Part shown: positions 30,660 through 61,929 of the stretch, piece by piece
How the letters are laid out: each line of letters begins with the position of its first letter
Numbering within the stretch: position 1 is the stretch's first letter
Origin: Eledone cirrhosa
Lineage: Eukaryota
Direction: 5' to 3'
Assembly: GCA_964016885.1 (NCBI GenBank)
Contig: OZ024740.1
Location: 352,718,001-352,782,000 of the forward strand
DNA: 64,000 bases
Position numbers and translations under genes: made by a program
The notes under the pieces: generated by a model
Told to the model about the DNA's origin: nothing
What the model saw: only the letters and a program-made list of their open reading frames with translations
Databases searched by the model: none

Positions 30660-31590
30660 TCTCATACCTTGCTTTCCATGCTAGCATGGGTTTGACAAAG
30701 AAGGGAATCATGTATGTTGGTGGGAATAGGGGGCACATCTTTCTTCCATGGTATGGGTTGTACAGGGATGTAGTAGGTGGAGGGAAGCACATCTTTTTTG
30801 TTTCTGTGGTGGCACGGGTTAGAGTAGGGAAGTAGGTGGGGGTGAACAATTTGAATAGGGAATAAGTTTAGGAAGGTGGTCAGGAGGGTTGGGTCTGTTT
30901 GCCTTTCTCTTTGCTTGTATTTCACCCCATTGATGTAGGAAGGTGAGTTTTCTTAATGACCTGATCCCGCCGTGTTGTTTACTCCAGCTTCGAGATTTCT
31001 TGAGTTTACCTCTTCGACAGTTTCCATCAACATTTTATGCAGCTGTCATATTTCATATGCATCACATATCCATACCAGCACAGTCTTCTTTCTTGTACAC
31101 TACCCTTTGTGCTCAGCTTTTCTTTTAGTGCACTGATACTTCATCTTTCATGTACATTACACATTCATCAGAGCATACTTGCTTTGTTTTTTTCCAATCC
31201 TCTGCAGTCAGGGCCCAAGTCTCATTTTCATGCAGCATTTTAGATATCATACAGGCATTATACAATCTGCTTTTCAGTCTGAGAGAGAAGCTCTTTTTGT
31301 AGCCAGCAGAGGTAGTAGATCCTTGAACTTTTTCCTCCCAGTTCTCACTCTAGTTACTATACTTTTGAAACGCTTTCCACCACTGCTTAAGTCACCTAGT
31401 TTGTGGAAGCTGTCAACCACTTCTAAGGAGCTGTCAGAGCTTTTGATAGCATTCATTTTGTGTGGGCTCTTGCTACTTACTGCTCCTGTGCACCTGCTAC
31501 ATACATAGCCTACATTCTGTGGTAACCTGCCTGAGATCCAACTACAACTCTTGTGTACTCATAGTTTACATATTGTACACTGTATAGAAT
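30660..31590 (-). mobile_element. RTE LINE C-terminal fragment
   Basis: LEVVDSFHKLGDLSSGG...RVRTGRKKFKDLLPLL. Confidence 0.85.
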
Positions 31591-31619
31591 AATAAAAGTA
31601 GGGGTTGAACAATTACATA

Positions 31620-32612
31620 ATTTTTTGACAGTTTCCTTTCTTTCTACATTCCACAAGCTTGCTTATTCCATCGGAGAAGGTTTTCAACCAGTTGTGCAGC
31701 CATTTATGTACTGCTTCCTGCACTTCTTTGTTTGTAGCAAAAAAAAGACCTCGTAAAGATGTTTAAGCATCCAGAAAGGTGATAGGCAGAAGGGGCGAGA
31801 TTTGGATAGTATGCAGGGTGTTCCAGCAACTCAAAACCCAATTTTTCAATGGTGTAGGTCGCTGTATATGGTTATGCAATAGACCTCAGCATTTGGTGCA
31901 AATTGCTGGTTTTAGTTGGCCAGCACTTCACTATACCCTACACTGATGACTGAGGATGCCTTTAGGCCCTTTTGCGTCCCTCAAAGCAGTCAGCATCACT
32001 TTTTCTGTGGAAGGTTGAGTCTTGAAGTGACACAGGTCTCATCTTTTGTGACTATTCTCTCCAAAAAAGCTTTGCATTGTTGTAGCAGTCGAGTAAGCGT
32101 TGACAGATCTCTATACGATTGCACTTTTTCACTTTGGTATGGTCTCTTGGGACCCATCTTGCACAGATTTTATGGAAGCAAAGCTTGTTGATGATTTCAA
32201 ATGCAGAACCATGATTAATTTGCAGAGAACATGCCACCTTATCGATGGTCACTCATTGGTTTGCCCGATCCATCTCTCAAACTTTTTGAATCTCCATGTC
32301 AGTGGTGGAGGTTGATGGGCATCCTGCTCCCACTTTGTGCTTCATGCTTGTCTGGCCAATTTTAAACTTTTCGATCCATTCATACACACTTCTACGCAGT
32401 AGAGCACTGATCTGTTCTTCCTTGGTGCATACTGCCAGCAGAGTAGTCATGTTTACCCTTTAACACAAGAAAGAAAATGAGTGATCAAGGTGAAACCTCT
32501 GTTATATAACCACAAGAGTACCAGCTTTTAGCATGCGAGCATTGAAGGCAGTGCGGTCTACCTAAAGAAAGTTTTTGCAAAAGTGCAGATAATCTTTGAC
32601 TTCCCCTTGAAT
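31620..32612 (-). mobile_element. Degenerate mariner transposon
   Basis: HKICARWVPR (mariner WVP motif) and LEHPAYYPNLAPSAYHL (YSPDLAP-like); stops and deletions. Confidence 0.88.
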
Positions 32613-32617
32613 ATATA

Positions 32618-32659
<42 letters not shown>

Positions 32660-32867
32660 CATAGTATTAGTTATACTATTTATGGTTATGTAAACACAAA
32701 ACCTTAAGCAGTTGTAAGTATTTTACACACACCCTAAATAGTGGTAGGCAGTAATGTATTACTACCTTATTACCAGTAAGTTAAGTAGCTCAATGTAAAA
32801 ACATCAGATGATTTACAGAGCAGTTATATGAAATATAGGAATCAAAGAACTGTTCAAAACATTATTG

Positions 32868-32915
32868 TGCTTACAGCTGTTTCCTCCAAACCGAGGTTTG
32901 GATTCTTCGGAGCAA
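32868..32915 (-). ncRNA. Mirror-image candidate hammerhead ribozyme
   Basis: Same motif on the minus strand, with stem II loop CUCG; predicted cut after 32872. Confidence 0.65.
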
Positions 32916-33020
32916 TTTATTAATGCATGGACAGTTATATGACCTCCTTTTCAGCCGAGAGACATACCAACACATATTCAAACATTGATACATATTCAAA
33001 CATTGTGGGTCATTAATAAA

Positions 33021-33068
33021 TTGCTCCGAAGAATCCAAACCTAGGTTTGGAGGAAACAGCTGTAAGCA
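33021..33068 (+). ncRNA. Candidate minimal type I hammerhead ribozyme (variant core)
   Basis: UGCU-CCGAAGA-a-UCCAAAC(CUAG)GUUUGGA-g-GAAA-C(AGCU)G-UA^-AGCA; predicted cut after 33064. Confidence 0.68.
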
Positions 33069-33299
33069 CAATAATGTTTTGAACAGTCCTTTGATTCCTA
33101 TATTTCATATATATACATATATGTATATATATTTCCAGGTCTGGGGAAAAGTACCAAATTAGTGACTGGCATGAATAAGACCACCGAAACACTGCTATAT
33201 GGCCAGAAATCATAAAGGCATACATACTGCATTATTCTTTGCTTGGAATAACAAGGGACATGGTCAGGTCTTAGGTAGAGGGACTTGAAAAATATATTG

Positions 33300-34010
33300 C
33301 AGTCTACACCCAACGCTGCACGAACTAGCGATAGGCCCGCAATATGTCCTTGGAGGTGTGAAATGGACACACAAAAGTTATGTATCTTGTAAAAAGGTCC
33401 AGAAAGGGGCAAGGAGATTTGCTTTATGAAGCTGAGGCCGAAAGAAAGGTCTCTGTGGGTGGTGCAAATTTATGCGCCAAACAGTCTGAATACAGATCTT
33501 TCCTTGATGAAATCACTGCAGCATTAGATATAGTTTCCACATGTTGGTACTGACTACTTGATATGGAAGGGAGTGATTGGATGAAACAATGATCCTGATC
33601 TAACTATGAATAGTGAGGCTTTATTAGACTTCTGTTCAAATAGTGGGTTCTCTATTATGAACACCTTCCAGCATAAAGATATCCATAAATACACATGGTA
33701 TAAGGAGAGGGAATCGGGCATCCAGATCAATAATTGATTTTGTTATTGTTTCTGATCTCTTCGATTCTGTGTTAGATGTTCATGTTAAGAAATTAAGAGA
33801 GAGAGTGAGCTGTCAACTGATCGCCAACTACTTATCTGCAATCTGAGACTTCCTAATGCCAAGAAAGCCCACAAAACTGACGGGTCCAGCTTGACCTACA
33901 GGATAAATACGCTTAGATAAGGAAGTCAGGACCAGGTATGTGGATACTATTGCATCCAAATTCAGAGAACTCCCTGAACAAAATGAGTATGTTGAAATTG
34001 AGTGGAGATT
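33300..34010 (+). mobile_element. LINE apurinic-type endonuclease fragment (RTE-like)
   Basis: Frames give VVQIYAPNS, LLDFCSNSGFSIMNTFQHKDIHKYTWY, IDFVIVSD and ELSTDRQL. Confidence 0.8.
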
Positions 34011-34689
34011 TAGTGAACCCGTCTGTCGCACTGATCACATTATTGAATTGACTGCCTCCATATCAATTCTTTGTTTATATTTTGCTGTAACCTTGTAGGG
34101 ATTACTAAATCTTTTATGTTAATTTCACCTGACAACATTGCTGATTGTCTTGTGTCATGATCTGATGACGTAAGTCGGCCATAGAAATATGTATATCTAT
34201 GTAATATTAAAGGAATATATTGGAATCTGGCATTCTTTTTCATTGAAGTATTTAACTCTGTTCCTGCATCAGCCACGAGTTACCACATGCTGATGAAGTA
34301 TTTCTTAGAGCTGTATTGTAATAAGAAATTCCAGTTGCGGAAACAAAACCTAGAATTAAAGTAAATCTAGAATCAGAGTAAACTTAGCAAAACCAAAGTT
34401 TTAGAAAGTAGTAAAGAAAACAAGACTGATATTCCTTTACTGCATATCGAACATGGCCACTTCCTTGATGGTCTTGTCTTCTTTTCTGTTTCTAAAAATT
34501 TTGGTCTTTGCTGGGTTTACCCTGTAATTTCAATAAACCCTGTTCATGGTTCAATGATTCCATTTAAAGAAGTAATTGTTTAGGCAATCTGTTAATCTCA
34601 TTATATTTGTCATTTAAATAAGTGGCAAGCATTTTACTTTGTCGTTTCAATTGACTATTCCTTTCTTACAAATATGTGTCCATATGCCA

Positions 34690-34876
34690 ATTGGCAGTAT
34701 CGGTAGAGGGTCGGACACCATGCTTTGAAGCATATAGTTATGTCCCTTTATGATCCGAGTTCAAATCCCGCCGAGGTTAACTTTGCCTTTCATCCTTATG
34801 GGGTCGATAAAATAAAGTACCAGTAATGTACTGGGTAATTGCTGGCCTTGTGCCAAAAAATAGAAACAATTATTAT
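34690..34876 (+). mobile_element. Young tRNA-derived SINE (Meta-domain-like core)
   Basis: GGCAGTATCGGTAGAG...GAGTTCAAATCCC...GCCTTTCATCCTTACGGGGTCGATAAAATAAAGTACCAG...(ATT)n; partial copies at about 6100-6200, 23678-23778, 35945-36110 and 41050-41150. Confidence 0.9.
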
Positions 34877-37479
34877 TGTGAGTGATGCAACATTGTTCAC
34901 TCATTTGTGCTACTTCTCAGATGGTATAAATAAAATCTATGCTCATCATTTCATTTGCAGCTAGGTTTCCTATAATAAAAAACACAAAAAAAAACAAAAA
35001 AAATGTTTTTTCAGATTCACACTTTTTCCAGAATATGAAGAAACCATTACAAATGAGGGGTGTAAATTTTCTCAAAGCTACAAGCATCAAACTTTACTAT
35101 TGATATTGTATTTTTCATGGTAATGTTGAGATAGCTATATCAAATGGTGCTGTAGTTCTAAACTACCAACTCCCTTCTACAACACTACAAGTTACTATGA
35201 CAGCTTACTGATCACAGATTAGATCATACTGGCTTGTAATTCTATCTATTCTATACCCCCCTCCCTCCAACTTTATCTGGGTTGTTTTTTTTTTGTTTTA
35301 TTCTAGTAAGAGAGTGACATTTAACAATTTTTGTTTTGGTGTTCACCTTCTGCTACCATTGAGACAGTCAGTGAAGTTGATCAAACTGATGACTACAGAT
35401 TGTTAGGTGGAACACCTCTCACTCTAACTCTCTCTCTGCCCTCTCTCTCCCACATGCACACTAATTGCAGGACTCAATTAACTGCTTTATAGTATATAAT
35501 TTTTTTTTTGTTTTGTTCCTTGTGTTTTAAATTTTTAGTCATGACATTACAGTGTACTGCTGGGTCCCAAATAATATGGGGTGGTGGTGGAATAAGCAGG
35601 GAGAGGGATCAGTAATTATTTAGTGTGCGTTCATAAATTACTGGAAAATCTTAAGAACATCCAAATACTGAGGAAAATCAACAGATATTGATTTAAGCAA
35701 CACGTTTTAAATAGAAAGAAAAGTAAAACAATGAAAAGAGTATAATTAGCATTTTGTGAACTTGCTATATTTATTATGTTATGTTTTATTATGCTATATA
35801 TTAAAAGTTAATAAGTGTGTGTGTGGAGAGGTGGAATAAGAGCGGGGGTGTGTGTGGAAACATCTGAAAAAGCAATAAGGGGCGAGTGGTGATTATTCTA
35901 GACTTGAGAGTAGTTTAAAATTGTGTATGTGTGTGTGTAAATTGGTCAAGCCACTTGACTCAATCAGTATATTACTGGTACTTCTATCAACTCTGAAGGT
36001 ATGAAAGACAAAGTTGACTCCCACCAACACAATGGATTTGCATAATTGAAATTGGGAGTGTGAAACACTGGATAAGACACTGTAAAGTCTTCTAGTCCAG
36101 CACTCTACCATTAAAATTGATTTTACAGACATGAATTCCTATTTCTTACCCTTTATTGTTGAAGGGGAGAAACATGAAATTGTGATGTTCACCATGTTGT
36201 CAATTCACAGGCATTAGACACATAACTAATTCAGCAAATTTAATCCTTCTGATACCAAACTACCCCTAGTTCTGTTATACAAAGCTGTTATTTTAAAGTA
36301 TTTTTATTCATCTAAAAACCTTCCATCATAATTGTATCAAAGAACCTTTGTTAAGCTATACCCCAAACACCAGCTTAATGAGAAAGTTAATTATTTTACT
36401 AAATCCCTCCAAATTCTTGATTATTCCAAAAGTTATTTGAAAATCATAGGTAACGAAAGTGTTAACTGAGTATCAAAATCATTAGCAAGGGAATAAGGGC
36501 AGCACCACCAAGTTAAGCCAACAGGATTGATAAAGCAATTACCCATATGTAATGATAAACCTCCGCAAAAAAAAAAAATCAAAATATTTCAAGCAAATCC
36601 TTCTGAACCATTGGTATTGGTTGCTATATAAACAAGTTGATCTCTAGCTCGGCACAGACAGGAGCATCTTGCCTTTCAAGGAATAGCTATAACTTCATTG
36701 TCTAATGTAATCTTCCTTTTTCAAGATGGTAAGGTGTGATTTGTGACAAACATAGAGGCTTCCTTGCTGGTTTGTTTAAACCAGCCTTTAATGGCTGTAT
36801 AGTGTTAGAAAAGTCACCATGCGAGGCTTAAAAACTCTGTCAGTATTTTCTTCCATGTATCTGTGTTTGAATATGAATTCTGTCTGGTTCAGCTTTGTTT
36901 TTCCATTCTTCCAGGGTCATTAGAATGCATTGATGGTCAATTTAATAGGCTATATGTTGCCCTGTCTACAAGTTTTGACTACATGGCCATTCTGAGGAAA
37001 CATTGTTTTTTGATGTCTATGACATATGCTGTAAAGTAAGAGTTAAGCTTCTATTAAGTTAATGTCATAACTTGGTTTCTTTCTAGTCAACTTTTTACAT
37101 CATTAATGTTCTAGAGAAAAGCATGGATGCTAGTCAGTGTGATTTATATTCCTTTATGAAGCAGGTGTTATAGTAATAAAAAAATAATGCTTTGTATGTG
37201 TTATTTATCTTCATGTCAGCCCATGTCAAATATATTTATGATCAAACGTGTTCCAGTCATGACTACCTCCTCTTTAATTCATGTGCATATTTGATGTATG
37301 TAAGGTTGATGGTGCAAGTATAATTTCTTGGTGAGCCAGATCCACTACTTGGTTTTTATACTCATTTAAAATCACTAATGCCTGTGAATTAAGGAGAGTC
37401 ATGATCAATGTTACCACATTCTGTTTCCCTTCATCAGTAAAGTGGATTAAAAAGAATTCCTGTTGACGAGAGCACTAGA

Positions 37480-37880: not shown

Positions 37881-38339
37881 AGTACCAGTAATATACTGAT
37901 TTGAAGTACTTGGTTTATTCCAACAATTACATGCATGTGCACACACACACTTGAAACATACACCTTTATATCATGGCTGAAAAATTGAAATGCTGAATTT
38001 ATAATGACTATATTTTACTCTATTTAGTTTTGTCATTTTAGGTTCAAATCCTACTGGAGTTGAGTTTATTATTTTACGCTCCCCATATTAATAAGTTATA
38101 TGGTATTATATGTACCTTTTTTCAATATACCCCAGTCAATTAATTTGACTACATTTGTTCCCAACTCTTTACCAAGTTGAAAGAAATCATTAGATATTTT
38201 AATGACCCCCCGCCATCTTTCTGTTAACTATGTAGTCACATATCTTTACATCCATCCTCACTGTATCTGGAACTGTGTGCCATACATACATACATGCATG
38301 CATGCATGAAGTGATGATGATGTTAATTTCTGACAAAAT

Positions 38340-38525
38340 TAATAATTGTTTCTACTTTTGGCACAAGGCCAGCAATTACCCAGTACATTACTGGTACTTT
38401 ATTTTATCGACCCCGTAAGGATGAAAGGCAAAGTTAACCTCGGCGGGATTTGAACTCAGACCGTAAAGGAACGTAACTATGCTGGAAAGCATGGCATCCG
38501 ACTCTCTACCGATACTGCCAATCCT
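38340..38525 (-). mobile_element. Young tRNA-derived SINE
   Basis: Reverse complement of the 34690 family. Confidence 0.9.
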
Positions 38526-39467
38526 CCAATGATAATAAATAACACCTTACTATTGACTATTTTCTTTTGATCTCATCTTATACAACTTCCCATCCCTGTA
38601 GTACTGTGGCAAAACCATGAAGAGACATTTTCTGCTTTCTTCTATACTTCATTGATTACTATTCTGCTATCTTTGCACTTCATCTCAATGCTATACAAAC
38701 AGAACATCTTTGGATCTTTATATCATGCGTTATATGATTCTTAAAGGTTCTTATCTTCTAAAAGCTTTCTTTCACAGGATCACTATATATTATAATCCCC
38801 CTCTCCCCAAAAGTATGACTCTTATTTTTTTATACCAATTTGCCCCAAACTACTCCAATTCTATGATGACAGACCTCTAGTTTGAAAGTATTCCTATTTA
38901 AATAAAAAAATGTTATAGTAGAATATCTTTAAGCTATGTATTAAAATCCAGCTTAATAATATGGTTAGTTATTTTACATATTGTTAATTATTTACAAAAT
39001 TAATTGAGAAACATGGTGTATTTTATTAGAAATATGGTAATGAAAGGGTTAATCAGTGGCTTAAATTAGAAGCAAAGTATAAAAAAATGAAGTATGAAAA
39101 GATTTGACTATCAGCAGATTTTGACTATCAAGAGTCACTTTTTGATTTGTTTTGTTTTACATTTCAATGTTTCTTGTTTTCAGTTTTGCTGCATGTATGA
39201 CCTTTTCAAAGAGAATGTGAATATCTTAGTTTTCAATTCCAATTTGTCAATAGACCCAACAATATAGATTGTTTTCGTTAATTTGTGAAACATTTGACAC
39301 CTTTCACTTAGAATATTTTCTTTCTAATCTGGTATTTAAAAAAAGACAAAAGAATTCCTAGTTTTGCCATATATAGCCACAGCTACAGTACTTTAAGGGA
39401 ATTGATAGATGTAGAACTAATACAAATACAAAAACCCAGTCTTTAGCAACATGACAATTAGTGCTAA

Positions 39468-39648
39468 TAATTATTTCTACTTTTGGCACAAAACCAGCAA
39501 TTACCCAGTACATTACTGGTACTTTATTTTATCGACCCCGTAAGGATGAAAGGCAAAGTTGACCTCGGCGGGGTTTGAACTCAGAATGGAAAGAGCTGTA
39601 ACTCTATGCGTCAAAGCATGGTGTCCGACTCTCTACCGATACTGCCAA
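39468..39648 (-). mobile_element. Young tRNA-derived SINE
   Basis: Reverse complement of the 34690 family. Confidence 0.9.
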
Positions 39649-40499: not shown

Positions 40500-40670
40500 G
40501 GTAGAGGGTTGGACGCCATGCTTTCCAGCATAGTTACGTCCCTTTACGGTCTGAGTTCAAATCCCGCCGAGGTTAACTTTGCCTTTCATCCTTACGGGGT
40601 CGATAAAATAAAGTACCAGTAATGTACTGGGTAATTGCTGGCCTTGTGCCAAAAGTAGAAACAATTATTA
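40500..40670 (+). mobile_element. Young tRNA-derived SINE, directly after an older decayed copy (about 40310-40500)
   Basis: Family sequence; the upstream copy shares the ggctttgtgc...gaaaacattattatt end. Confidence 0.88.
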
Positions 40671-41777
40671 ACATATTTTTGCCATCAAAGACTAGGTCTT
40701 TGGATTTGCAGATGCCATGCTCTAAGCAGTAATGTATAGTTATTACCTCTATAAAGACTAAGCTAACTGTAGTTAGTTTACTCCTGATGCTTCTGTTGGA
40801 AATTAAATACTCATTGCTAATGAGAGGTGCAAACTGTTATAACCTGTTGATTGCCACGTATATTTTACACAGCTACAGTTGCTGTGCCGTTTTTTTTCTT
40901 CAGTAAAATGAAGTTATGAACTGTTAGAAACGAGTTATCTCGTCTGTGGCACTAGAATGCATACATGTTAGGATGAGATATCTCGTCTATGGCTCTGAAG
41001 TGGTTAAGTGAACCACGAATAAAATGATGAAAGTACAAATAATTTCTAACACAAATTCTTGTAGAAGGAGTGTAGTTTTACTTGATCCCAATATTTTATC
41101 AAGCCTAGAGTGAGGACAGGCAAAGTGAACTGTGGCAGGTTCGAACTGTAATATTTTTAATTTTTAACTTTTCTCGTCTTTGACAGCAGTCTTTTAAAAT
41201 AAAAATACTATTTAGTTTTTTCAAATAGAGTTGTGGGGGACCGACCATATATCCAACCAGTATTGGGTTAGTTCATATGCAGTTATTATGGTGCCAAGCA
41301 GATGGAAGAGACCACCTGTATTGGATGCCAGTCAATTACAGGCAACTTTTCTTGTAGGAGAAATTGAACCTGTCACTGCAAGCCAACAAATCATTTGTCA
41401 ATTTTGTTCACATCGCAGTTGCTGCTTGCACTAGTGACTTAAGCCATCCTACAGTTTCTATATTTAGCTAAGTGTGGATTTTGGTTTTGAGAGTTATAGT
41501 TACCTTGGCTACTGACACAATGCAGTGCTGCTTACAGGATATAAACTACCAAACACTCAACTTAGTTGTTTTGTAGCCTTATTGACTCAATCCTCTGTGT
41601 GCTCTTGGAATTCAATAGACATGTATAAACTATAGAATCATACAGAAAACAAATGAATATTCATACCTCACTTATCTCTCTCTTTGTATTTGTTTTGTCT
41701 GTTTCCAGAACATAAATTAAAATAGTTTGGATATTTTGGTAATTTTTTTATGCCTAAACGTATGAGACTTTTTCTCC

Positions 41778-50020: not shown

Positions 50021-50769
50021 GCATTATTCAAAACCTGAGAGTAAGCGCAAATACTTTGAATGAAAGGTATCTATGAATAAGACTTGTTCAGACTACGTAG
50101 ATATTTTTGTTGTGTGCTTTCTGTTAATTACTTGTTGTTTATCTCTTTTAACCCTTTTGTTACTATATTTCTAATGAAATACAGTAAAAATAATAAAGAA
50201 TTTGGAGGGATTTAGTAATTCAACTAATCTTTCTGTTATTAAGCTGGGGTTTGGAGCATAACCTAATGAAGGTTCTTACATAAAATTATGATGAAAGGTT
50301 TTTAGATAAATATAAACATTAAAAAAGAATTGTATCATAGATCTAGGGGCAATTTCAGGCAGTTTGGTATCATGGGTTAGTAGATATAGATAACGATCTT
50401 AGAAATTCTTCATTCTCATTTGATTATTTCGATAGCTTCAAAAGGCATGAGGATTCAAGAGACTGAGCCACTTACTCAAGCTCAAGATCATAAGTTGAGT
50501 TCTGGCTATGCCCATTGCATTCAACATCGATTTTAGATCTGATCTGATCTATGCTGACGGGTTGGACGAGATTTTTTGAGGCAATTTTTTTTATATGACC
50601 AAGTGGCCTTCCCTGTGCCAGGGATAAGTATTGTGTATATTGACTTTCTTCAAGCTGGTAAGCTGCAGGATGTATTGTTTATGTGGGACATAAACAAATA
50701 TCACCGGTTGCTTTTACATGGTATCAATATGAAAATGCTCGCAAACACTCACACATACACACACACTTG

Positions 50770-51205
50770 AACGACTACTGGCTAAATTTTTTTGCCCACA
50801 GAAAAGAGGAGAGTGTTTTTCCAAGGTGCTAGTAGTTAATACAAGAATTTTCAGCTTTTCTGTTGCACACGGGCATCTTGTACCTTGTCCATTAGTAACT
50901 ATACCCCATCTTATGGAAGGATGTTCAATTCTTTTATCTTTGAAGTGCCAGGTGTACTTTGATGCAGTAAAATTTCTCTTGACTGTGTTCTTCGAGTATA
51001 AATGTTGTATGAAGTGGGCTTTGAAGGCATTCTCTGTTAATCCAATACAGATTTTCATTATTCAGTCATTGTCTTGCATTTTGGCCTTATACATAAGCTC
51101 TTTGGTGAGGTATTTGTTGTCAAAGAGTTATCTAGATTTATCTCTACAGTTACATTTATGCAGGGGGTTGATATGTAATGTGTTTAGATGTCTTGTGATT
51201 TAATA
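50770..51205 (-). mobile_element. Penelope-like element, GIY-YIG endonuclease fragment
   Basis: CNCRDKS...KYLTKELMYKA then ICIGLTENAFKAHFIQH...ASKYTWHFKD...IRWGIV...CPCATEKLKIL, the typical PLE C-terminus. Confidence 0.78.
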
Positions 51206-53391: not shown

Positions 53392-54049
53392 TTAAGCCTT
53401 CCATTATCATATTTTTGGATTGGCAGTATCGGTAGAGAGTCGGACACCATGCTTTGACGCATAGAGTTACGGCCCTTTCCATTCTGAGTTCAAACCCCGC
53501 CGAGGTCAACTTTGTCTTTCATCCTTACGGGGTCGATAAAATAAAGTACCAGTAATGTACTGTGTAATTGCTGGCCTTGTGCCAAAAGTAGAAACAATTA
53601 TTATATATTTAACCCTTTAATGTTCAAACTGGCCAGAATTCTCTACCTCTTTCTGTTGAAACTGCCTGTAACTGGTCGCTCAAACTGATGTTAAGGTATT
53701 GTTCTCAAAATAAATACTTTCAAAATCTCATAGATTCGATATTATGTGAGATAATTATGTGAGGTAAAGCCTTTACCATGAAAATAGTATAATACCATGA
53801 TAATAGTATATATAGAGTAATGTAATTGCTAAAGGGTTAATGAAAAACTCTATGTATTTAAAATAATTTTGGAAATAACCAAATATTTAGATGGATTTAG
53901 TAATTGATAACTAATTTTCTCATTATGAAACTTGTGTTTGCAACATAACTTAACAAAAAGTTCTTACATAAAATTATGAAGGAAGGGTTTAATTTGAATA
54001 TATAAACAATGTAAAATGAGAGAATTATGGTTGGTATTGAAAGGGTCAA
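53392..54049. mobile_element. MITE B carrying a nested SINE (53417-53603) and MITE A (53609-53840)
   Basis: B start ttaagccttccattatcatatt, B body resumes after 53840 and ends gaaagggtcaa. Confidence 0.75.
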
Positions 54050-61123: not shown

Positions 61124-61325
61124 TGTTTCTGACAAAATTAATAATTGTTTCTACTTTTGGCACAAGGCCAGCAATTACCCAGTACATTACTGGTACTTTA
61201 TTTTATCGACCCCGTAAGGATGAAAGGCAAAGTTAACCTCGGCGGGATTTGAACTCAGAATGGCAAGGACCGTAACTCTATGCGTCAAAGCAAGGCATCT
61301 GACTCTCTACCGATACTGCCAATCC
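61124..61325 (-). mobile_element. Young tRNA-derived SINE with target-site duplication
   Basis: Family sequence flanked by cctg(ta)n-at repeats at 61108-61123 and 61327-61344. Confidence 0.9.
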
Positions 61326-61929
61326 ACCTGTATATATATATAATGTGTGTGTGTGTGTGTGGTGGTGTAGGTGCCACAACAAAAAGCACCCAGCATACAC
61401 TGTAAATGTGGTTGACGTTAGGAAGGGTATCCAGCCATAGAAACTTAGCCAGAAACCATTCTATATGAGTATTATATGATCACCTGACCCAACTTGCCTC
61501 AAATGCGACAACCCATGCTAGTGCGGAAAATGGACGTTAAATGATGATAATAATGATATGTATATATAAAATTAAGAGGTTCACTCCAACATCGCTGTAT
61601 ACATATACGTATGTGTATTTTGTATATCTAATGATGTTTACAGATAAACATTTGAAAGTCTTTAGCTATGAATTTTGGAAGCTGATGGCATGGCACCACC
61701 TAGCGAGGTACCAGCAGAAGCAAGAGGAAATTAGAGATGACCGTTTCTGACTGATGGTCATTATCAATGCATTGTTCCCCATTACCTCGCTTTCTGCTGG
61801 AACTCAATATAGGCAAAAACATATTGTTTGATGCCTATGTACATGGGCTGATTAGCCTCATTTGCATGATGTTGGTTTTAGTAAAAAAGAAGGGTCTGTG
61901 TTCATTATCTTTGCAGACTATCTGAGACT

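Follow-up and report, generated by a model that had tools for sequence, protein, structure and literature searches.

Two truncated Penelope-like element ends, fused head to head and probably primed from both target strands, form a foldback with twin hammerhead motifs in Eledone cirrhosa

INTRODUCTION

How did two outward-facing hammerhead motifs come to lie in a pair of inverted arms in the genome of Eledone cirrhosa? The original prediction, made on a 64-kb window (the whole stretch of DNA analysed here), saw at 32825..33111 a distinct, non-coding derivative of a Penelope-like element (PLE), in whose transcripts self-cleavage would compete with a 100-bp duplex. The locus touches on two matters that are named as open questions in the PLE literature (PMC8557442, PMC11167929), namely the origin of tandem and inverted PLE insertions and the role of the PLE hammerhead.

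RESULTS

The foldback consists of two truncated ends of one element

The inverted arms (32825-32925 and 33011-33111, 101 nt each, separated by 85 nt) are 98% complementary and, just as predicted, differ at two positions, 33043, which falls in the stem II loop, and 33088. Each arm holds the full type I hammerhead layout, TGCT-CCGAAGA-A-7-bp stem II-G-GAAA-C AGCT G-TA-AGCA, facing outward; a relaxed descriptor (type I hammerhead with Y allowed at positions 3-4) returned these two sites in the 64-kb window. In the plus-strand motif the cleavage triplet GUA occupies 33062-33064. The foldback of the locus has a predicted energy of -168.9 kcal/mol.

The predicted boundaries proved too narrow. Traced to other loci, the arm turned out to be the end of a 4.2-kb PLE with one ORF. 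The true unit is 32660-33111, two 5'-truncated PLE ends (pLTR) fused head to head (Table 1). When compared with an intact element (L118), copy A matches over 351 nt (32662-33012, minus strand) at 99.4% identity and copy B over 101 nt of the plus strand at 97% identity, the two overlapping by 2 nt. Beyond its arm, copy A continues into a tail of 165 nt. The 85 nt between the arms (the 'spacer') also belong to the element and include a direct repeat of 16 nt at a spacing of 18 nt (32972-33005). We refer to the untailed end site as E1 and to the tailed end site as E2; they lie 165 nt apart. In tandem copies the 165-nt tail runs on into the start of the next ORF, of which it forms the leader.

The head-to-head junction of the locus, which sits in an insertion into a (TA)n tract, is single-copy in the genome, also when 1 mismatch is tolerated. 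The stub has therefore not moved as a unit: it is a dead-end insertion, not an amplifying mini-element. Among contigs from sequencing runs none extended across the junction, and no intron-like joint was seen in them.

Table 1. Features of the locus and of its surroundings (positions in the window)
Feature	Position	Strand	Basis or remark
(TG)n/(TA)n tract, left end	32611..32660	.	target type of the family; sequence, family ends abut (TA)n
Copy A, 5'-truncated PLE end	32660..33012	-	186 nt up to E1, then tail to E2; mapped q-186..+162
Tail, 165 nt, between E1 and E2	32660..32824	-	131 exact tail-to-ORF junctions genome-wide
Minimal type I hammerhead motif, C4 core, family-standard sequence	32868..32914	-	predicted cleavage after 32872
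'Spacer', PLE sequence upstream of the ribozyme	32926..33010	-	comparison with L118
Head-to-head junction	33011..33012	.	2-nt microhomology common to both copies; unique in genome
Copy B, 5'-truncated PLE end, without tail	33011..33111	+	stops at E1; mapped q-99..+1
Minimal type I hammerhead motif, C4 core	33022..33068	+	predicted cleavage after 33064
(TA)n-like tract, right end	33110..33132	.	sequence
Copies of the ~185-200 bp repeat	34690-34875, 38327-38527, 39465-39648, 40500-40671, 53416-53603, 61126-61328

Three further observations concern the tail and the surroundings. The tail (32660-32824, minus strand) is predicted to fold into three hairpins (-40.1 kcal/mol, a value without shuffle control), which are candidates for a protein-binding site between the two start points. 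The flanks at 32300-32480 (minus strand) and 33140-33730 (plus strand) are decayed coding sequence that we take to resemble mariner transposase and LINE endonuclease. Finally, a young repeat family of ~185-200 bp, its members 89-98% alike, has at least 6 copies in the window.

The parent is a young family with intact ORFs

Tandem units of the parent measure 4,172-4,201 nt. The family is young: five copies with an uninterrupted ORF (L111, L113, L114, L116 and L118) are 0.2-1.4% apart, and the 48-nt family ribozyme has 1,821 exact copies genome-wide. The single ORF encodes a protein of 819 aa from the first Met, in which an RT (YRDD at 354) is followed by a C-terminal GIY-YIG endonuclease (VIY...YVG at 697), a domain order described for the Hydra clade. 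The Pfam GIY-YIG profile matches this protein weakly, with an E of 0.047 that is below the cut-off. Further marks are RWR, a variant of RWK, at 38, ADKT at 122 (DKG changed to DKT), CxCX5C at 678, CxxC at 776 and CxH at 804; a CCHH motif is absent, and one Cys lies between VIY and YVG. A (TA)n tract directly follows 772 exact E1 and 1,017 exact E2 ends, counts that come from patterns of unequal strictness. Judged by eye on its likeness to published alignment blocks, the parent reads as an autonomous Hydra-clade PLE. The Naiad clade, our first guess, was rejected because the endonuclease is C-terminal.

The original prediction also pointed to a GIY-YIG fragment near 50.7 kb of the window. That this fragment is PLE-like stands; as the parent of the ribozyme element it fails, since the degraded GIY-YIG-like sequence at 50714-51061 (minus strand) is 23% identical over 90 residues to the endonuclease region of the parent family and belongs to a different PLE family. 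A tblastn search of the 64-kb window with the family ORF gave no match.

The intact ORFs, among them that of L118 (2455-4950), exceed in length the Hydra proteins depicted in the literature, owing to runs rich in asparagine that precede the linker and also occur inside it; in rotifer Penelopes, inserts rich in N have been described (PMC3846280). A divergent second Hydra-type ORF (DKT, CxCX5C, one break) was found at L049:1782-4086 on the minus strand, where it adjoins a head-to-head stub of the parent family.

Every mapped inverted insertion joins one tailed and one untailed end

Outward-facing inverted pairs are the usual insertion form of the parent family. Among the exact ends listed on C1 (85 E1 and 100 E2), all 36 neighbour pairs at most 12 kb apart combine E1 with E2 and face outward, and the first 100 ribozyme matches listed contain 25 opposite-strand pairs, every one of them outward, next to 8 direct tandems ~4.2 kb apart. 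We fetched 66 head-to-head junctions. Both outer ends could be mapped in 47, and all 47 join E1 to E2; the other 19, in which an end lay beyond the sequence fetched or one arm was interrupted, are unclassified, and none of the readable ones is contrary. Of 28 unpartnered 5' ends, 7 bear a micro-arm, which is of the opposite type in 6/6 cases with a mapped outer end. These samples come mostly from C1-C7 and from exact-match lists and lean to young copies. Sister-family inverted pairs, too, have one tailed and one untailed end (e.g. L055, L064, L073, L243, L244 and L248).

That pairs of this kind are normal for the family speaks against a distinct mini-element. The reading as a mobile unit of retrozyme or MITE type, PLE-derived, non-coding and equipped with ribozymes whose cleavage is pitted against the 100-bp duplex, could draw on the two intact motifs, on the very stable foldback and on the PLE-derived non-autonomous retrozymes already described (bioRxiv 10.64898/2026.07.22.740005). 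The single-copy junction refutes it as a mobile unit in this assembly, the inner sizes of inverted insertions vary continuously between 164 nt and 6.6 kb, and the described retrozymes are direct tandems, not inverted pairs; we regard this reading as very improbable. The competition between cleavage and duplex survives in part: fold-back is to be expected of any read-through transcript, but it is not special to the locus, given that 13 of the 36 pairs measure less than 480 nt. Nor do the genomic copies bear an A-to-I footprint. Among private changes in 180 segments, A>G (57) is matched by T>C (58), so that an RNA-editing excess is absent there; transcripts that were never reinserted lie outside this test.

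Still less credence, next to none, goes to a DNA-transposon MITE (terminal inverted repeats, TA target duplication) or to a fold-back artefact of assembly. The inverted arms do end in TA-rich sequence; yet the ends are asymmetric, only one of them having the 165-nt tail; the arms, which differ at two sites, belong to the end of an element that encodes an RT; and dozens of loci follow the same rule with different junctions.

Reach of the arms favours two primings over fold-back

How the second arm arises can be addressed through the extent of the two copies. Of the 47 mapped insertions, 19 have an E1 arm with a greater 5' reach than the E2 arm, 19 show the reverse, and in 9 the two are equal within 15 nt; several tailed arms consist of the tail alone. 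The arms diverge by 0.5% within an insertion vs 1.7% to other insertions (lower within in 41/43). At 52 of the 66 junctions the copies overlap by at least 1 nt, and 9 of the 66 are near-perfect palindromes, symmetric within 15 nt, vs 1.4 expected by permutation.

The same parent could also yield an inverted arm by self-priming (fold-back) of one nucleic acid. This is how head-to-head junction palindromes of rotifer Penelopes are interpreted, with self-priming on an antisense template (PMC3846280), and both the 9/66 symmetric junctions and the rare variants that often occur in both arms (paired C4G, C4A or G5A copies) agree with it. A cDNA template, however, cannot yield arm sequence that is absent from the template. 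In 19 of the 47 insertions the untailed arm is the one that extends further 5', and the tail is on the other arm only; several tailed arms have nothing but the tail; and the outer ends, precise on both sides, lie directly against (TA)n. Since each arm can thus have sequence that the other lacks (19 cases), two primings on one RNA lineage are favoured, and fold-back appears improbable to us. Two of the observations do not separate the readings: arm similarity fits the same RNA, the same source locus, gene conversion or one-cDNA copying alike, and symmetric junctions would equally result from two enzymes that both reach the end of one RNA and run off it.

We therefore consider it probable that the stub is one dead-end insertion, made of two 5'-truncated PLE ends reverse-transcribed from both cut target strands. 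The RT-GIY-YIG protein would cut both strands of a (TA)n target, as has a precedent in vitro in PAc, the Poseidon element of Anolis carolinensis (Frangieh et al. 2024, PMC11167929), whose protein, a predicted dimer, cuts and extends both target strands. One 3' end would then prime at E2 and its counterpart at E1, the template being one RNA or RNA of one source; each cDNA would end prematurely (at about 351 and 101 nt in this case), and the two would be joined at short microhomology. The outward orientation of the ribozymes would mean no more than that each copy stops soon after the pLTR ribozyme. In PAc, too, two RT start sites define the tail (PMC11167929). The strict one-of-each rule, on the other hand, would not yet seem explained by PAc, whose strands showed equal start sites in vitro.

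A C at core position 4 is the standard of the family

Searching 31000-35000 with Rfam gave no hammerhead match at E<=10, and the arms have weak folding z-scores (-1.2 to -1.5). Despite the missing Rfam match the motif is far beyond chance genome-wide, with 15,761 pattern matches vs 35 for a reversed control in the 3.0-Gb genome. As predicted, the motifs are minimal hammerheads of the PLE type in an inverted PLE structure, and their helix III is palindromic (an 8-nt palindrome runs across it). Measured against the consensus core CUGANGA/GAAA/NUH, the C at position 4 deviates and the other core positions conform. The G10.1-C11.1 pair is absent, being replaced by A.G in the motifs of the locus and by mixes of A, C, T and G in sister families.

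The original prediction suspected both oddities of inactivating this copy. Where A.G at the base of stem II is concerned, a mismatch is common there in published Hydra-clade ribozymes, stem II being flanked on either side by an unpaired T (T.T) in many rows of File S2 of PMC8557442; by comparison of sequences A.G appears to fall within known variation and C4 outside it. The U4C change is indeed present, but it is not decay of this copy: C4 is the standard of the family and found also in sister families. A position 4 other than C was seen in 52 copies (27 T, 14 A, 11 G) vs 50 copies changed at G5, in list counts made by eye; an expanding U4 revertant subfamily, which we had entertained, was rejected with 27 T4 copies vs 44 A5. 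The upstream ribozyme reads CCGAAGA in all 76 pattern-matching cases among 90 ORF-start copies. With positions 3-9 left free, 8,047 matches were obtained; in the first 100 listed, C4 occurs in 93, from several families (counted by eye, with many rows near-copies), and C3, G5, A6, G8 and A9 are each kept in at least 93.

Across sister families positions 7, 10.1, 11.1 and 17 vary along with the loops, while the remaining core is constant, the pattern that one would expect of a hammerhead core. In 18 hand-picked family rows, which are related and were taken from core-requiring searches, 93% of stem cells pair vs 20-42% when slid. Covariation, proposed as a check, is weak, one compensatory pair being seen in 4/18 rows. 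U4 families coexist with C4 families in the same genome; in a tree built from 25 of the 69 sequences, short ones excluded, the origin of C4 takes 4 changes, at least 2 of them forced, and on this tree C4 clustering is not clearly beyond shuffles.

Related pLTR hammerhead families radiate in this genome (L051-L080, L211-L250), some with CUGA and some with CCGA cores. A separate abundant family (L065, L075, L077, L078, L245-L247) has canonical CUGAUGA, a stem II of 3-4 bp and different flanks.

Copied templates mostly pass the cleavage site

We examined 90 of the 131 ORF-start copies, a few of them from the same locus, for where their 5' ends lie relative to the upstream cleavage site. The copy extends past the site in 78, ends at it in 1 and stops short of it in 11, so that a pile-up of cDNA ends at the site is absent (1/90). 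Templates that were copied were therefore mostly uncut or re-ligated, and passage through the site also fits a re-ligated circular template. A cluster of 5' ends upstream of stem I, at a distance of 16-54 nt (13/90, p about 2e-4, in a window chosen post hoc; 7 in 60 new copies alone, p 0.11) is only a hint of a transcript start. In two insertions (C5:84730944-84737368 and C2:328474396-328478619) rare core changes are common to the tandem and the inverted ribozymes, as expected if one template is copied repeatedly; a circle is possible.

Does the C4 motif cleave? Our literature search on U4C, hammerhead and self-cleavage returned only a viroid variant, and Lunse et al. 2017, on variants of PLE hammerheads, may list U4C. 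The U4C change considerably lowered the activity of the viroid ribozyme in vitro, and the variant was still infectious (PMC3088659). Within the two-priming explanation, a motif that is catalytically dead and kept as a protein-binding, promoter or folding element is a substantial possibility, if short of an even chance. The viroid activity data point that way, as do the missing G10.1-C11.1 pair, a hammerhead fold that lies 2.1 kcal/mol above the minimum, the uncut passage of templates, the existence of insertions with G5A or C4G in both arms, and PAc insertion in vitro, which catalytic mutants left unaffected (PMC11167929). Against a dead motif stand the constancy of C3, G5, A6, G8 and A9 across sister families amid variable loops and positions 7, 10.1, 11.1 and 17, the 93% pairing of stem cells with a compensatory pair in 4/18 rows, the infectivity of the viroid variant, and the PAc ribozyme, which cleaved only in the presence of its protein (PMC11167929). 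We lean slightly towards the C4 hammerhead being a slow, dimer- or protein-dependent ribozyme that is uncut on most copied templates.

DISCUSSION

The foldback with two hammerhead motifs traced in this study belongs to a known class of dead-end products and is ordinary among them; the locus is one of many such stubs. In a bolder scheme a dimeric protein would prime both target strands on one RNA at two obligatory, different sites 165 nt apart, and the U4C ribozyme would work, being licensed by the protein or slow. Taken as a whole we hold this scheme to be doubtful. If it were true, head-to-head insertions would be the direct product of twin priming, and U4C would have been carried through many spreading PLE families. 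Thousands of C4 cores, which CUGA-based descriptors would overlook, offer a natural test of whether PLE hammerheads must cleave.

Comparison with known systems

Published accounts of PLEs already include (TA)n targeting, hammerheads in the pLTR, insertion of inverted 5'-truncated copies and a tail at one of the ends (PMC8557442), and the closest published relatives are the C-terminal EN+ PLEs of the Hydra clade (Craig et al. 2021, e.g. Penelope-13_HM and Hydra-1_Obim; PMC8557442). The parent shares with them the RT-then-GIY-YIG ORF, DKT, CxCX5C, the lack of CCHH, CxxC, CxH and (TA)n targets, as well as a pLTR hammerhead whose helix III is tiny and whose stem II is often flanked by an unpaired base on either side. 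Penelope-13_HM likewise has a 5'-truncated inverted copy with a second ribozyme on the other strand (PMC8557442). The parent differs in its unit of 4.2 kb, published ones being generally <3 kb, in RWR instead of RWK, and in its CCGA core, CUGA being found in 26/26 Hydra rows of File S2 (PMC8557442). Its 165-nt tail contrasts with the 30-40 bp stated for PLEs.

As in the minimal hammerheads of metazoan PLEs (Cervera and de la Pena 2014, PMC4209133), helix II is 7-8 bp, helix I is short and the mini helix III is palindromic, for which action as a dimer was predicted there. In Schistosoma mansoni, pairs of motifs on opposite strands, separated by about 100-700 bp, are already on record (PMC4209133). 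Unlike the consensus of that study, CUGANGAH-G...C-GAAA, the motifs here have U4C and lack the G10.1-C11.1 pair.

Similar to our family, PAc has two start sites and an AT-rich target, and its main template is uncleaved RNA; it differs in belonging to another clade, in its tail of 30-40 bp and in a start site that is not strand-specific in vitro (PMC11167929). Non-LTR retrozymes, non-coding and related to PLE pLTRs, share the type I hammerhead (bioRxiv 10.64898/2026.07.22.740005). Unlike retrozymes, which are direct tandems amplified as units, and unlike MITEs, the insertion described here is inverted and asymmetric, with a single-copy junction. Three features go beyond what we found in print, namely the C4 core as a family standard, the 165-nt tail and the strict E1+E2 asymmetry. 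With its youth, its intact ORFs, a long tail that tells the two ends apart and the one-of-each rule, the family lends itself to a direct test of two-strand priming.
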